Shown: positions 770 to 12,861 of the stretch, piece by piece | Layout of the letters: each line of letters begins with the position of its first letter | Numbering within the stretch: position 1 is the stretch's first letter | From: Candidatus Geocrenenecus huangii | GTDB lineage: Archaea > Thermoproteota > Nitrososphaeria_A > Caldarchaeales > Wolframiiraptoraceae | Length of the DNA: 64,000 bases | NCBI GenBank assembly: GCA_023254095.1 | Contig: JALNLM010000001.1 | Location: 32,001 to 96,000, forward strand | Direction of reading: 5' to 3' | Translations under genes and position numbers: made by a program | Notes under the pieces: generated by a model | Told to the model about the DNA's origin: nothing | The model's input: only the letters and a program-made list of their open reading frames with translations | The model's database searches: none

Positions 770-3700
770 CTATTGTCCTTCTCGCTCAAGCTGTTTTCGA
801 CTAATGATGTATAAGAGATAAGCTGCTCTAGCTTCGTTTTCAACGAATTCTATTAATTGACGTGAACGTATTTTCGAGATGTATTCTATAAGTTTTATGC
901 CTGGAACTATCCTTTTAGCGTCATCCAATATCTTCATTATCTCTCCTATACTAGATACATGCAAACCGAGGACCTTCTTAGCATCTTCCAATTCTATTGA
1001 GTATCCCAACGCCCTAAATACTAATTCATGAGAATCAATAAGCAAGCCTGCGGATTCTAATCCTTTAATCAACGTCTTCAGACTCTTTAATCCAGCAGAG
1101 TCAAGATAACTGTACAATAAATTGATGTTATATGTTACTAAATTGAATCCCTCATCTATTAGCTTTGAGAGATTTTCCTGGAGTTTGAGATAATCTTGGC
1201 CTGGCTTGCCGAGTTCTGTGACCCCACAGCAGCTAGAATATTCCTCGCCATCATACATCGATAGAGCGTAAATACCTGAGTTGAAATCCTCTCTAAGCTG
1301 GAGATAAAGAGCTTGGATAGACGCTATCTTAAGGCTCCTGGACGGTTTAGGGACCTCTAATGTCTTGCCCATGAATTCAAAGATTATCCTTTCTCTTCTC
1401 CTAATATAATCGAGAGCCCGTAAAGCATATTCTTTAGCTATCTCCCAGTCCAGTTTAAGAGATATGAACGCCGAGTAAGAATATTCATCCAATTCTTCGA
1501 GAAGTATTTCATCGATCTCGTCTGGTGTATAGTTTTGAACCCCTCTATAGACTTCAGTCCAATCCAGTTTCTCCAGCAATCCAGCACTCTCGGGTTCGTG
1601 AAGAGCTATGAATTTTCTTTCTCCCAGCCTGATAACGCTATACATTATCGTTTCAAGAGGTACGCCGAACATTCTTCTCAAGACTATCATAATATACGCT
1701 AAGCCTAACTTAAGTAGCTCCGGATCTTCTTCTAAACCAACTTCGATCACTTTTCCATAAGTGTAGTCTTCGTATTTTCCGTAGGTTGGAGCGGCTACAA
1801 CTATGGGTCTTTTATCTCTATAGAATAGTGTTTCATCGTTTCTTCTTATCATTTTCTTCCTCTCACCTATGACAACCCATTCAACTCTATTGGGTATTTT
1901 GACGTATTTGCCGAACCCTTCCATTGGTGGATGGACGACGCAGAATACCCTTGAATGCAGTCTACCCAATACGTAGTCCCTCCATATGTTAGGTTCTTCC
2001 CCCCAGCTTTCTTTTATCCTGTCATATTCTTCTAGGGCGTATGCTGTTCCTTCGTATCTCCTCAGGATCCTCTCTCTTAATGGTTCGACTATGACCGATG
2101 TAACAGTTCTGCCTCCTCCAAGTCTATGATTCGTTACTATACTGTCGCTGGTATAGTCTATGGAGCCCGGCTGGAATTTTTCAACAAGGTCGCAATGACT
2201 GATGTCTTCAAGCCTAGAAGTCGTCCCGTCTTCATTTATCTTTATCCTCTTTATACCATATGGCGGGGCATATTCATAGAAATTCATCTGTCTCCAAACT
2301 CTCTTCCCGGCTCTAGTTACTTCTACTCCGTCGAGGAGTCCCAGGTTTTTCAGGAATTCCAATTCTTCTCTAGTCAAATCTTTTCTCATGAATGGAGATT
2401 GGACTTTCGATAATGCTTCAAAAAGCATTGAATACTTGTTTTCAGGATTTACAACTATTTTTTCGAGAAACATGTTAAGCCATTTTTCTACAGTTTTTGC
2501 ACCTCTTGAGAGCAGGTCGTAATCCCATGATCCTTGAGGGATTATAACGGTCTCTGTAAATTCAGTTCCCTTTCTCCTACCTTTCCTTCCTTCTCTTTGA
2601 TAAAATTCTCTTATTGTATCAGGTAAACCTATGTGTACAACTCTCAGTACCTCTCCAATATCTATTCCTTGCGATAAGGTTCTAGGAGATACGAGGATTT
2701 TTATAAGCCCAGACCTTACCGCGTCCTCGATCTCTCTTCTTGTCTCTCTAGATACTAGGTGATGGTGAGAGGCAACTCGTTCCCTCCTCCCAGTCCTCTC
2801 AATAATTCTTCTAGACAGCTCTTCCGCTTTCTCAATGCTCCTAGTGAAGACTAACGTAACTGCTTCATCGAATACATATTCTGACAGAATCTCAGCCGGG
2901 TCCGACCATGGCTCAGGGGCGGCCACACCTACATATCTTAGAGCATCCCAAACTCTGTAGACGTTCTGCTGGAAGAGCTTAAACTCTTCAAGTGATCTTA
3001 GTATGTCTTCTCCTACTCCTGCTTCTTCTAGTCTATCTTTGAATTTTCTAGCTTCCTCCCACAACCTCATAAGGTTCTTACCTAAAACGATGTATACTCT
3101 ATTCTTTGCCTTGAAAGCTTTTCCTGAAATAATTCTTGTTTTTCTACCGTTTATCCTTGTAAGATATTCAGCTACTTCCTCAGGATTTCCAAGCATAGCT
3201 GTCATGAAGGCAAACTGAATATTGTTTCCAGTAACCCTTACAAGTATCTTCAACATCGAGAACAGCAACGAAATCTCTCTCGGACCATAAAAATCAAAAT
3301 CGTCAATAACTATCAACCCCATTTTCTCGAAGAATGGGGAAAGCAGTCCATCACGTTGTAGAGAAATCTTCTTAACTTCATTAAGTAGAAATGCCGGATT
3401 CGTGACGATGAGGTCTGATTCAGAGATCATTTTTCTAACATTCTTTAATCCTTGCCTGGAAATCAGTTCTTGCTTCTTGGCAGCATCGAGGACCATTATC
3501 TTCATGTCTAAGTCTAGACAATATTGGTTGAGCCTATTCAACTGGTCGTAAGCTAATGCCAGAGTAGGGTAAACAGATAACGTTTTACTCTTCCCCTCAA
3601 CAGTGTATAAGAACCAGGCTTCAGTCTTCCCTGAGCCTGTTCCAGACTTCAATATTATATTCGACCCCTCTCTCAAAGCGTTAAGAGATTCCAGTTGATG

Positions 3701-3883
3701 TCTATAGAGCTTCTTACCGATTAATTCTCTTGTTTTCCTGGTTGAGCCATCCTTTAATCTTGGGATAAGATCTTCGAACGATTCCTTAACATACTCTGGA
3801 GACTCCTCTGGCTGGTCGAAGAAATAGTAGCTGTATCCTAGCATGTCTAATAGGCTTCCAGTCTCAATTCTCGGTTTCGCCAT
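770..3883 (-). CDS. SF2 helicase, Hrq1/SftH/MrfA-like, with C-terminal extension
   Basis: LYRHQ Q-motif, SGTGSGKT, YPTLALAYDQ, TNP, motif II DDFD, SQGIDIG, QREGRKGR; 1037 aa. Confidence 0.85.
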   Translation of the reverse strand: MAKPRIETGSLLDMLGYSYYFFDQPEESPEYVKESFEDLIPRLKDGSTRKTRELIGKKLYRHQLESLNALREGSNIILKSGTGSGKTEAWFLYTVEGKSKTLSVYPTLALAYDQLNRLNQYCLDLDMKIMVLDAAKKQELISRQGLKNVRKMISESDLIVTNPAFLLNEVKKISLQRDGLLSPFFEKMGLIVIDDFDFYGPREISLLFSMLKILVRVTGNNIQFAFMTAMLGNPEEVAEYLTRINGRKTRIISGKAFKAKNRVYIVLGKNLMRLWEEARKFKDRLEEAGVGEDILRSLEEFKLFQQNVYRVWDALRYVGVAAPEPWSDPAEILSEYVFDEAVTLVFTRSIEKAEELSRRIIERTGRRERVASHHHLVSRETRREIEDAVRSGLIKILVSPRTLSQGIDIGEVLRVVHIGLPDTIREFYQREGRKGRRKGTEFTETVIIPQGSWDYDLLSRGAKTVEKWLNMFLEKIVVNPENKYSMLFEALSKVQSPFMRKDLTREELEFLKNLGLLDGVEVTRAGKRVWRQMNFYEYAPPYGIKRIKINEDGTTSRLEDISHCDLVEKFQPGSIDYTSDSIVTNHRLGGGRTVTSVIVEPLRERILRRYEGTAYALEEYDRIKESWGEEPNIWRDYVLGRLHSRVFCVVHPPMEGFGKYVKIPNRVEWVVIGERKKMIRRNDETLFYRDKRPIVVAAPTYGKYEDYTYGKVIEVGLEEDPELLKLGLAYIMIVLRRMFGVPLETIMYSVIRLGERKFIALHEPESAGLLEKLDWTEVYRGVQNYTPDEIDEILLEELDEYSYSAFISLKLDWEIAKEYALRALDYIRRRERIIFEFMGKTLEVPKPSRSLKIASIQALYLQLREDFNSGIYALSMYDGEEYSSCCGVTELGKPGQDYLKLQENLSKLIDEGFNLVTYNINLLYSYLDSAGLKSLKTLIKGLESAGLLIDSHELVFRALGYSIELEDAKKVLGLHVSSIGEIMKILDDAKRIVPGIKLIEYISKIRSRQLIEFVENEARAAYLLYIISRKQLEREGQ

Positions 3884-10242: not shown

Positions 10243-10656
10243 TTGGGTGTAGATTTTTCAGAAGAATGGCTTAGAAACCAGCTTAGAGAATTGAATAGGG
10301 ATCTTCCTAGAGTTAGGGTTCCCCTCGCACGTCTACTTGAAATGGATAACCCGTCAGTCGAAACCGTTGGAGGAGATATCCATTACTTTGATAAAAGAGA
10401 ATTGAGAGAATTAGCAGAAATCTTGCCCAGCGAATTACATGAGAAACTAAAGCTACCGCTAGTGTTTAGGAGAAGTTTGGAGGTAGGGGAAAGCATCTAT
10501 TTTCTAGATGGGGGAGGAGCAGAAGCCGAAGTCTTGAAAAAGCTTCTAGGATTAGAATTTACACCATCCATTCAGCAGAGATACTATACGTATAAACCGG
10601 TTATCACTAAGCTGATTTCTAGATTCCCCTCTATAGTAGTTATTGGAGTCATCTAG
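10243..10656 (+). CDS. DUF61 (UPF0216) protein
   Basis: LRELNRDLP...LARLL...P...GDIHYFDKREL...LKLPL pattern; start uncertain (10189-10249). Confidence 0.75.
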   Translation: MGVDFSEEWLRNQLRELNRDLPRVRVPLARLLEMDNPSVETVGGDIHYFDKRELRELAEILPSELHEKLKLPLVFRRSLEVGESIYFLDGGGAEAEVLKKLLGLEFTPSIQQRYYTYKPVITKLISRFPSIVVIGVI

Positions 10657-11365
10657 TTGAAAGTTTTTTCACGGCTCGGTACAGCGGTATTGCTACAGCC
10701 ACTCCGATTACTACTTGACCAAAATTAACTGGTAATTCACCGAGTGCATAGTATCCTAATATGAATTGCTCGTATACGAAGTAGCCTGAAACCATTATCA
10801 ATCCTGAGAGTAGTAATACCAGCAATAGTAATCCATCGGCTTTCCTAGACCTTACAGTCAGATACAATGGTGTTGCAATTCCTAGAACTGCCAGAGGATA
10901 CCATATAAGTGGATGGATAACCCCTGCTATAGACATAAGCAGAGTGAATGAAGCTTCGAACTCTCCAGAAAGAATGTATAGCCCAACTAAGAGAATTGCG
11001 AATAGATATCCAGCAGATACGATTAAGGATAGAATAAATATTCTAGATGTTTTTTCTCTACCTGTTAGCTTTAAAGCCAGATACCCTGCAGCCCATCCCT
11101 CTGCAGCTTTTATCAAGAGTGTGGCTGGAGCATAGATATGGTATCCTAGGATGACGTCTGCTAGAGCTGAACCTACACCTCCTGCGAAGGCACCGACAAG
11201 TGGACCAAAAAACAGAGCAGTGAAATAGATCATGGTTTCTCCTAAGTTAAAATATCCTCTCGTAGCCGGAACATATACTGTAAAGACTATAGTTGCGGCA
11301 GTCACTAACGCTGTGGATAATGCAAGCCTCGCTGTCTTTAAACCCAAGTATGAAGTAGATTCCAT
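10649..11365 (-). CDS. ECF transporter S component
   Basis: VPATRGYFNLGE, GGVGSALAD, APATLLIKAAEG, NFGQ; multi-TM. Confidence 0.9.
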   Translation of the reverse strand: MESTSYLGLKTARLALSTALVTAATIVFTVYVPATRGYFNLGETMIYFTALFFGPLVGAFAGGVGSALADVILGYHIYAPATLLIKAAEGWAAGYLALKLTGREKTSRIFILSLIVSAGYLFAILLVGLYILSGEFEASFTLLMSIAGVIHPLIWYPLAVLGIATPLYLTVRSRKADGLLLLVLLLSGLIMVSGYFVYEQFILGYYALGELPVNFGQVVIGVAVAIPLYRAVKKLSTR

Positions 11366-11370
11366 TCTCT

Positions 11371-11419
11371 TTTATCTAGGTTCTGAAAGCAATATATAAG
11401 ATAAACCCTACATATAGGG
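11371..11419. promoter_or_regulatory. divergent promoter with TATA and two inverted repeats
   Basis: 56-bp intergenic; TATATAAG 11393-11400; TTTATCT(11371-77)/AGATAAA(11399-405); CCCTA-cata-TAGGG (11406-11419). Confidence 0.45.
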
Positions 11420-11421
11420 AG

Positions 11422-12861
11422 ATGAGGATCGAGTTAACCTGCCCTAGATGTGGTAGAAAGAAAGAGTATGATGCATTTAGCGGAAATCTTTGTAGTTGTA
11501 GAACTCCCTATCTAATCGATTATCCCGTCTTCGTAAAGTATGGTTCTGAGCTTTCAAAACTATTTGCTTCAAGACCTAAAGGTGTCTGGAGATATCTAGA
11601 GCTTCTACCTCCTACTACGATTAGCCCAATATCTATGGGTGAGGGTGGAACATATTTTCATCATTCAGAAGGTCTTGGTAGACAGATTGGTTTAAGAAAA
11701 CTATACATAAAGAATGAAGCTACAAATCCTACAGGCGCATTTACAGATAGGGGGGCATCTATTGAATTAACTAAGATCGTTGAGATAGGCGTTCGAAAGA
11801 TTCTGTGTGTGGCGGCGGGGAATCTTGCTGTCTCTATAGCTGGATACTCTGCTAAGGCAGGGATCCCTTGTTCAGTCTACCTGAAACATGGAGTAGAACA
11901 GGTGAAAATATTACAGGCACTTGCATACGATGCAGAAGTATATTTCACTAATGATCCTCAGATAACGATTAGGCTGCTCGGAGAATCTTCTAGCCAATAC
12001 ATAGTTACATCCTTAAGCCCTCTACTAATAGAAGGATACAAGACATGCATCCTCGAAATTCTAGAACAATTTGATTGGAATTCTCCTGACTGGGTCTCTA
12101 TACCTATTGGCAGTGGATCGCATATCACAGCATGCTGGAAAGCATTAAGAGAAACTGAGAAACTGGACTTAGTAAAAAACAGTCTACCAAAGATCTTGGG
12201 AGGACAGATCTCCTCATGTGCACCGATCGCTGAAGCATTCATGAAGAATAAAGAAGATGCAGAGCCACTACAAGTAGATAAAACAATATTTCCCGAGATC
12301 TCTGATCCTAGCCCAGCCTGGGCTTATACTGCTCTTAGAGCCGTAAGAGAACTGGGTGGAGCAATAGTTAAGGTAGACGAAGAAGAATTGATGAAAGCCA
12401 TCAAACTGCTTGCAAAAAATGAAGGAATACTAGCTGAGCCGGCGTCTGCCGTAGCACTAGCATCTATGATAAAGGCAGTAGAACTCGGAGTAATAAAGAG
12501 AGATGAATCGGTTGTCTATATTGTTACAGGATCTGGAATGAAGGATCCCTCGATCATAAAAGTAGTAACTGAAAGCAGGAACTTTTCAGAGATGGGAAAA
12601 GAGAAACGAATAGGATTCACTAAGATGAAGATCCTAGAATTATTGTTCGAGAAGCCTCTCCACGGATACGCAATCCAGAAAGAACTAGCTCTTAGGCATG
12701 GTCTCAAGATAAGCCTTCCCACTACCTATGAACATTTAAGAGATCTCCAGACAATGGGTCTAATACAACAATCTCTAATATCGAGGAATAGAGAAAAGAG
12801 GCTTAGGAAAAAATATATTATAACTGAGAGAGGGAAATGGTTTCTTAGAAGAACCGTCTAA
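11422..12861 (+). CDS. threonine synthase-like (fold type II) protein lacking the PLP lysine, fused to C-terminal PadR-like winged HTH
   Basis: N-terminal Zn ribbon, GEGGT, NPTGAFTDRG (canonical NPTGSFKDRG), EGILAEPASA, TGSGMKDP, then KILELL..PLHGYAI...TTYEHLRDL..GLI...RKKYIITERG. Confidence 0.88.
   Translation: MRIELTCPRCGRKKEYDAFSGNLCSCRTPYLIDYPVFVKYGSELSKLFASRPKGVWRYLELLPPTTISPISMGEGGTYFHHSEGLGRQIGLRKLYIKNEATNPTGAFTDRGASIELTKIVEIGVRKILCVAAGNLAVSIAGYSAKAGIPCSVYLKHGVEQVKILQALAYDAEVYFTNDPQITIRLLGESSSQYIVTSLSPLLIEGYKTCILEILEQFDWNSPDWVSIPIGSGSHITACWKALRETEKLDLVKNSLPKILGGQISSCAPIAEAFMKNKEDAEPLQVDKTIFPEISDPSPAWAYTALRAVRELGGAIVKVDEEELMKAIKLLAKNEGILAEPASAVALASMIKAVELGVIKRDESVVYIVTGSGMKDPSIIKVVTESRNFSEMGKEKRIGFTKMKILELLFEKPLHGYAIQKELALRHGLKISLPTTYEHLRDLQTMGLIQQSLISRNREKRLRKKYIITERGKWFLRRTV

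Follow-up and report, generated by a model that had tools for sequence, protein, structure and literature searches.

The closest described counterpart of the locus reported here is the bacterial vitamin B6 regulator PdxR. As described in PMC5320631 (in part), the apo form of PdxR sits on the spacer between pdxR and pdxST, where it represses the former and activates the latter, and pyridoxal 5'-phosphate (PLP) counteracts these effects; MocR factors are described there as distributed in Bacteria. For Archaea, PdxS/PdxT is named as the sole route of B6 synthesis, and PdxU and PdxU2/HmpT are both placed in PF07155 (PMC9997740, in part). We analyzed a 64,000-nt stretch of the archaeon Candidatus Geocrenenecus huangii (the window; assembly GCA_023254095.1, contig JALNLM010000001.1, positions 32,001 to 96,000), which carries a divergent gene pair. 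One gene codes for a 479-aa protein that joins a threonine synthase (ThrC)-like domain without the Schiff-base lysine to a PadR-type winged helix-turn-helix (wHTH), and the other codes for the S-component of an energy-coupling factor (ECF) transporter. Sequence and gene context suggest that the fused protein (hereafter the regulator) is probably an archaeal fold-type II analog of PdxR, which would sense PLP or a related vitamer, repress its own gene and control B6 uptake or synthesis.

The likeness to the MocR/PdxR factors lies in a PLP-enzyme fold that would act as a sensor and is fused to a winged helix (PMC5320631; PMC11619246, both in part), and in a gene that is divergent from genes of B6 synthesis or uptake, with an operator in the common spacer whose position implies autorepression. 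It extends, as a functional analogy, to the gene partners, a PdxU/HmpT-like S-component gene here and pdxS elsewhere. PdxR, however, has a fold-type I aminotransferase domain and an N-terminal GntR wHTH, whereas the 479-aa protein is ThrC-like (fold type II) with a C-terminal PadR domain; the domain order is reversed and the lysine has been lost in the archaeal regulator. A Pfam scan of the 479-aa protein gave PALP and a C-terminal PadR domain, with no GntR or aminotransferase match, and because there is no sequence homology to PdxR the likeness is one of convergence, not of membership.

With ThrC (TIGR00260; structures 2zsj, 6cgq, 2d1f, and 1uim) the regulator shares the fold, the archaeal-type zinc ribbon and most conserved motifs, but it differs in the missing Schiff-base lysine, the changed ASTGN loop and the additional wHTH. 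With the PadR family (PF03551) it shares a DNA-binding domain that scores above the family cut-off and a palindrome by its own promoter, yet the part presumed to be the sensor derives from an enzyme, measures 380 aa and precedes the wHTH. Its palindrome, CCTA-N4-TAGG, is also unlike the ATGT-N8-ACAT type of PadR and LmrR. The neighboring S-component resembles PdxU and PdxU2/HmpT in that it belongs to PF07155 and has 4hzu_S (HmpT/PdxU2; E = 1.4e-9) as its sole PDB relative, with an ECF ATPase/T module encoded elsewhere in the genome. Chain S of 4hzu is HmpT of Lactobacillus brevis, whose substrate has been identified as pyridoxamine (PMC4860826, in part). A literature search that left most subscription journals and supplements outside its scope found neither a ThrC-PadR fusion nor an archaeal B6-responsive regulator, and the comparative B6 studies (PMC5320631; PMC9997740, both in part) either are concerned with MocR factors of bacteria or leave regulators out of account.

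Table 1. Features of the divergent locus, in positions of the window.
Feature	Position	Strand	Description
Regulator gene	11422..12861	+	Intact open reading frame (ORF), 479 aa: zinc ribbon, lysine-less ThrC-like PLP-fold domain, PadR wHTH
N-terminal Cys4 zinc ribbon (C7, C10, C24, C26)	11440..11499	+	Sequence alignment
Fold-type II PLP-enzyme domain, residues 70-370, presumed sensor	11629..12531	+	Pfam PALP PF00291, E = 2.9e-62
Thr108 at the Schiff-base lysine column	11743..11745	+	Codon ACA, motif NPTGAFTDRG
PadR-type wHTH, residues 404-476	12631..12849	+	PF03551, E = 4.9e-11; score 42.9 bits (cut-off 27)
Divergent promoter region common to both genes	11366..11421	.	56 bp, read directly
TATA-like box AATATATAAG	11391..11400	.	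Conserved as ATATATAAG-like in aligned spacers
Candidate operator, palindrome CCCTACATATAGGG	11406..11419	.	Core CCTAYATATAGG at 11407-11418
ECF S-component gene, 238 aa, candidate B6 importer, presumed target	10649..11365	-	PF07155, E = 7.1e-27

Missing Schiff-Base Lysine in a ThrC-PadR Fusion

The preliminary description of the window had claimed an intact 479-aa ORF with threonine (ACA) at the lysine position, an altered substrate loop, a C-terminal PadR-like wHTH and a 56-bp spacer shared with a divergent ECF S-component gene, and all of these were present (Table 1). Fold-type II PLP enzymes need the Schiff-base lysine for their chemistry. The loop at residues 130–134 reads VAAGN, where canonical enzymes have ASTGN. 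The ACA codon is genuine and no assembly slip. In Logan contigs of public hot-spring data (four runs, each from a different study; such contigs may drop rare variants), the codon was unchanged, position 11744 included, and differences over 10649–12861 were seen only at 10835, 11102, 11240, 11285, 11376, 11420, and 12729. None of the 23 PadR-bearing homologs from the first protein search (36–80% identity) had the lysine, the fused proteins including the query carrying 14 Thr and 10 Leu in that column, and the unfused ThrCs of the same alignment had it in 10 of 10 cases.

A separate canonical thrC was looked for in the genome and found on another contig (G000:C8). Its product has NPTGSFKDRG and ASTGN and scores 292 bits with TIGR00260 against a cut-off of 167, so the 479-aa protein is a paralog. 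The closest solved structure to the latter is the threonine synthase 2zsj (E = 3.5e-54, 187.6 bits, residues 56–384), while its TIGR00260 score of 169.4 is barely above the cut-off of 167.1 and it fails the two equivalog models NF004170 (255.9 against 421) and NF006050 (249.9 against 303). In its zinc ribbon, a feature found in canonical archaeal ThrC too, C7, C10, and C26 are nearly invariant across the alignment.

Two further observations concern related genes. A second Lys-bearing ThrC-like gene of the same genome lies on G000:C1 (L002 43–3866), flanked by the gene of a CysM/SbnA-like PLP enzyme and by that of a ThiF/MoeB-like E1 (ORF 2796–3866, named from its sequence alone), and may function in a sulfur-carrier-linked pathway. 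In genome G308, the regulator frame that includes the first cysteine pair of the zinc ribbon (L107 2497–2562) has no upstream ATG, GTG or TTG, so that either the start is non-canonical or the sequence may contain an error.

Lysine Loss Across the Fused Family

To survey the family, we searched 1.84 billion cluster representatives with HMMER, took the best 150 and scored the wHTH in them by a local hidden Markov model. These 150 split evenly into 75 with and 75 without the wHTH, and the lysine was kept in 2 of the 75 wHTH-bearing sequences compared to 73 of the 75 wHTH-less ones. The lysine column of the wHTH-bearing group held Leu (23), Ile (21), Val (9), Arg (6), Met (5), Thr (4), Asn, Phe, Ala and Ser (1 each), and Lys (2), with one sequence ending there. 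The two unfused representatives without the lysine, one of them a fragment, nest among the fused sequences in the tree. Among loci taken from genomes (88, of which 7 repeat a genome and 3 were unmatched by the motif pattern), 84 of the 85 scored wHTH-bearing ORFs had no lysine. A set of 80 named records included 26 with a fused gene, and the lysine was present in four of these, all of one subgroup (N-P-T-N/S-S-F). The preliminary description had mentioned similar fusions in other archaea, and the architecture indeed belongs to a large family, restricted to Archaea among the records that carry names and called threonine synthase in every source name among those listed.

In a FastTree phylogeny of 111 PALP domains with the lysine column removed (local support values only, root unknown), all 33 canonical enzymes fell into a single starred clade (support 97) and the fused family made up the remainder. 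This layout fits one fusion event with the lysine lost afterwards. The loss may have proceeded in steps, from a fusion that still carried Lys (a few members from Bathy-, Loki-, and Hermodarchaeota) to Arg and then to hydrophobic residues or Thr, and the subgroup with Arg, Lys or Ser adjoins the canonical clade, with weak support. In four Bathyarchaeia records (L175, L177, L190, L195) an Arg-type regulator adjoins a canonical Lys-bearing thrC, and an origin of the regulator by tandem duplication of thrC would fit these loci.

The naming of the family has a counterpart in the model collections. The 'threonine synthase' equivalog model NF004170 (PRK05638; 442 positions) spans the wHTH and scores protein P0166, with Arg at the lysine column, at 451.6 against its cut-off of 421; the model is thus labeling pseudo-enzymes as enzymes.

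Conservation of the Cofactor Pocket

Alignment columns were compared between 73 canonical ThrCs and 76 fused proteins, with conservation in the canonical set defined as at least 85%. Of the columns conserved by this threshold, only K108, S131, and T288 were not kept in the fused proteins, and N102, P103, T104, F107, D109, R110, G133, K207, E212, E339, T369, G370, and G372 were conserved at 90% or more in both sets. In fold-type II enzymes, the Asn of the S/T-x-G-N loop (here N134), the Gly-rich loop (here G230-S-G232) and the Thr before G-x-G-x-K (here T369) contact O3', the phosphate and the ring nitrogen of PLP. Contacts of individual ThrC residues with PLP were looked for in PMC9081730 (in part) and not found. 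Because the pocket columns are conserved while K108, S131, and T288 are relaxed, we read the domain as one in which the cofactor pocket appears to be retained and catalysis given up.

Gene Neighborhoods and the Distribution of B6 Genes

The preliminary description had suggested that synteny with ECF S-component genes be examined. In the class, the S-component gene was divergent from and adjacent to the fused gene at 24 of 26 loci, with the other flanking genes (DUF61, acylphosphatase) common to close kin only, and the association was also found far outside the class. In other families of the phylum, an S-component homolog lay within 2.5 kb of the regulator at 23 of 40 loci (divergent, downstream or convergent), and at two more of the 40 the regulator was next to pdxS. 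One of these is in G308, where pdxS (Pfam, 4.6e-97) is divergent from the regulator and followed by a PdxT-sized ORF; the other is in G334, where it is directly downstream. Among the 26 fused genes of the named records, the S-component gene was the neighbor of 17 (including four from Thorarchaeota, one from Hermodarchaeota and one from Nitrosopumilales) and pdxS the neighbor of two more (one from Thermoplasmata, one from Nitrososphaerales). Of the 17 genomes examined in genus g21, five were also found to have PdxS, each with its gene divergent from the regulator. Altogether, the regulator adjoins pdxS in nine genomes or records.

The occurrence of the S-component was compared with that of PdxS in 76 genomes of the class and 401 genomes of the phylum. 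PdxS was found in 29 of the 76, and a strong S-component orthologue in only 2 of these 29, one of which retains no more of PdxS than 44 residues with a stop codon among them. By comparison, an S-component homolog was carried by 43 of the 47 genomes negative for PdxS. The same split was seen inside genus g5, where all four PdxS-negative genomes carried an S-component orthologue and most PdxS-positive ones did not. In the phylum sample, 26 genomes had both, 156 PdxS only, 179 the ECF S-component only, and 40 neither. The presence of the S-component is therefore complementary to that of PdxS in class and phylum. As a control, synthase of 6,7-dimethyl-8-ribityllumazine (DMRL), the riboflavin precursor, was found in 1 of the 76 class genomes, and so uniform an absence cannot explain the patchiness of the S-component. 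An ECF S-component homolog was present in 97 of the 110 regulator-bearing genomes of the phylum sample, and the regulator in only 4 of the 156 with PdxS alone.

No match to PdxS (PF01680) or PdxT (PF01174) was found in the 96%-complete genome of Ca. G. huangii. Together with its relatives, these distributions indicate that the S-component most likely imports a B6 vitamer, and we infer that the organism is a B6 auxotroph. G000:C17 encodes an ECF module in which an ABC ATPase of two domains (484 aa) and CbiQ/EcfT (240 aa) accompany another S-component. This second S-component (187 aa) is likewise of PF07155 and stands in an operon-like row (G000:C17:120500–127500, L146); given that DMRL synthase was so rare in the class, it may be a riboflavin importer. 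The S-component of the window (238 aa) is longer than HmpT (166 aa) by an insert of ~73 residues (98–170) between the aligned blocks, which would be sufficient for two extra membrane helices.

Some neighborhoods depart from these arrangements. In g5 (L050-L052) and g3 (L056, L057), the acylphosphatase gene abuts the S-component gene in the regulator's place, the regulator having been lost or never inserted in those lineages. Genome G293 (L111 and L154) carries two fused regulators, one divergent from a GNAT acetyltransferase gene with a perfect palindrome and the other directly upstream of the S-component gene. Those g21 genomes that have no PdxS, among them G103 (L135), keep the regulator with a perfect palindrome, but a GH18 glycosidase gene occupies the place of pdxS, and the S-component gene is on a different contig behind another inverted repeat.

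Divergent Promoter and Candidate Operator

The spacer between the two genes measured 52–61 bp at 20 of the 21 class loci with a full spacer, and 137 bp at the remaining one (L016). The center of AATATATAAG, which we take to be a TATA box from the geometry of archaeal promoters, is ~26 nt before the ATG of the regulator and ~30 nt before that of the S-component gene, and the box may serve both directions. The palindrome CCCTACATATAGGG begins 6 bases past the TATA-like box and ends 2 nt before the regulator ATG. Its 12-mer core CCTAYATATAGG, with at most one mismatch, starts 14–17 nt before the regulator start at 20 of 24 class loci, and at three others it starts 26–32 nt before an uncertain regulator start. 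In the long spacer of L016, a perfect copy of CCTAYATATAGG stands as far from the S-component start (~41 nt) as it does in the compact spacers, and near the regulator start there is a further copy with two mismatches.

The arrangement was also found well beyond the class. A promoter module consisting of the TATA box, 6–8 nt, CCTAYATATAGG, and the regulator start is common to Thermoproteota and Thorarchaeota, and the TATA/spacer/palindrome layout recurs in records from Thorarchaeota, Bathyarchaeia, Nitrosopumilales, and Nitrososphaerales. Where the regulator faces pdxS, the order from the pdxS start is ~27 nt, ATGTATAAG, 6 nt, CCCTATATATAGG, and ~10 nt to the regulator ATG; G308 carries the palindrome variant CCCATATATGG. 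ECF S-component genes of g21 that are unlinked to the regulator have a different upstream inverted repeat (CCTTA-N3-TAAGG), and G131 has a two-mismatch copy of the palindrome downstream of a TATA box.

Within the 1.6-Mb genome, CCTAYATATAGG occurs exactly once, and copies with one mismatch (22, compared to 25 for a reversed control) were at chance level as a sign of a wider regulon. In five other genomes that were scanned for the motif, the additional exact copies belong to G290 and G295 and fall inside ORFs. At position 11420, the first base past the palindrome and 2 nt upstream of the regulator start codon, three of the four Logan runs have G and not A. An inverted repeat TTTATCT/AGATAAA, seen by eye in the spacer, was dropped as it does not recur in the spacers of relatives, and a scan for bacterial sigma-70 promoters and terminators, a model not made for Archaea, was set aside, its single 'terminator' being the palindrome itself.

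Proposed Regulation and Alternative Explanations

In the preliminary description, the protein had been proposed to be a one-component regulator with a type II fold, its signal being either an amino acid or a B6 vitamer and its target the transporter next to it. The regulatory part of this proposal is supported by the loss of the lysine together with the presence of the wHTH, the adjacency to ECF S-component genes, the conserved palindrome and a partner that is either a PdxU/HmpT-like importer or pdxS; the B6 part also gained ground, and the gene contexts gave no support to sensing of an amino acid.

We propose that the ThrC-derived domain binds PLP, a close B6 vitamer or a PLP adduct reversibly and non-covalently as its signal. 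The PadR wHTH of a dimer, suggested by the palindromic form of the candidate operator, would bind CCTAYATATAGG at 11407–11418, and ligand binding would change the affinity for DNA. In the geometry of archaeal promoters, a protein bound between the TATA box and its own start would block RNA polymerase, resulting in autorepression. The same site is just upstream of the TATA box and transcription factor B recognition element (BRE) of the divergent ECF S-component gene, and because it lies between TATA and the regulator start and just beyond that TATA/BRE, it suggests autorepression combined with control of the target. B6 status would set the expression of the importer, with the S-component working through the common ECF module, and in other archaea the same module would be wired to pdxS(T). 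By analogy to bacterial apo-PdxR, we favor a scheme in which the apo-protein sits on the DNA with its own gene off and the target on, and PLP releases it.

Several points weigh against this proposal. A B6 gene was missing beside the regulator at 15 of the 40 loci from the phylum and at 7 of the 26 from named records, some of them at contig ends, and the S-component occurs without the regulator in genus g6, genus g5, and two g3 genomes. The counts over the class and phylum samples ignore relatedness, as does a Fisher test on the phylum table, which we therefore do not weigh beyond the counts themselves. Among the sequencing runs listed for the stretch, none was of RNA. The integrity of the pocket is judged from sequence conservation and from general fold-type II residue roles, and the substrate of the S-component from its relatives and its distribution. 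The residues of HmpT that contact the substrate are Glu41, His84, and Gln43 (PMC4860826, in part); in the alignment with the S-component the Glu is kept, and His84 stands opposite a Lys, with no position assigned to Gln43. A B6 salvage kinase was not identified in a PF08543 search of the genome, where the sole strong match was a ThiD/ThiN-type hydroxymethylpyrimidine kinase and a weak second match was an NAD(P)HX dehydratase. The genome has no second exact site to mark a wider regulon. Finally, since it contains TATATATA and has an AT-rich center, the palindrome could partly be a core promoter element.

The identity of the ligand is where another explanation comes closest to the data. The regulator might sense a metabolite of amino-acid pathways (threonine, O-phosphohomoserine or a PLP-amino-acid adduct) while the S-component imports a compound other than B6, as could be expected from a sensor domain descended from ThrC and from a family, PF07155, that by its name also includes transporters of other substrates. 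A precedent for such binding is the K87T variant of tryptophan synthase beta, a lysine-less fold-type II protein that reportedly holds a PLP-amino-acid external aldimine. We nevertheless regard this as unlikely: S131 of the ASTGN loop and T288, both strongly conserved in canonical ThrCs, are two of the three positions that the fused proteins did not keep, and pdxS beside the regulator in nine genomes or records, along with an S-component distribution that complements PdxS, speaks against a non-B6 partner. Nor was any threonine-pathway gene seen beside the regulator, except the canonical thrC at the four Bathyarchaeia loci.

The conserved pocket bears on whether the domain has a ligand at all. 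A transcription factor that works independently of any ligand, with the dead ThrC domain as a dimerization scaffold for PadR, would account for a PadR part of only ~75 aa without the C-terminal dimerization helix that is usual for the PadR family. It would also agree with the dimeric state often found for ThrC-type enzymes (PMC9081730, in part). We find this quite improbable, because a mere scaffold has no need of pocket motifs, and these are conserved at 90% or more across divergent members (30–40% identity) with only the lysine and two neighboring positions relaxed. Retained enzymatic activity, as a threonine synthase or some related lyase that uses another residue or free PLP, with the HTH adding autoregulation, seems very improbable indeed. 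The TIGR00260 score just over the cut-off, the name threonine synthase in the sources and the lysine kept in 2 of 75 fused representatives and 4 of 26 named loci would be in keeping with activity, but the family as a whole has Thr, Leu, Ile, Val, Met or Arg in a column where fold-type II chemistry requires the Schiff-base Lys, the genome has a canonical ThrC, and the cut-offs of NF004170 and NF006050 were both failed.

Implications for B6 Homeostasis in Archaea

Regulation of B6 supply by a PLP-sensing, self-repressing fusion protein is thus the explanation that we prefer. With a modest lean in its favor, we extend it to a broader one, in which the protein is the long-missing B6 regulator of Archaea and an independent fold-type II reinvention of PdxR; a duplicated ThrC would have gained PadR and then lost its lysine, so that a cofactor once bound covalently would have become a ligand sensed reversibly, and with a near-constant operator, CCTATATATAGG, by a shared TATA box it would control pdxST or the import of B6 in archaea ranging from Thermoproteota of hot springs to Thorarchaeota. 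On this view, one bound dimer might switch the direction in which a two-way archaeal promoter is read. The labeling of pseudo-enzyme regulators as threonine synthase would be an annotation error, and the near-identical operator across phyla a rare handle on the geometry of regulator and promoter in Archaea. If correct, the proposal would provide a candidate B6 regulator for Archaea and a defined sensor-operator pair for their B6 homeostasis. It would also assign a role to a widespread family of archaeal ECF S-components and flag many lineages, including Ca. G. huangii, as B6 auxotrophs.

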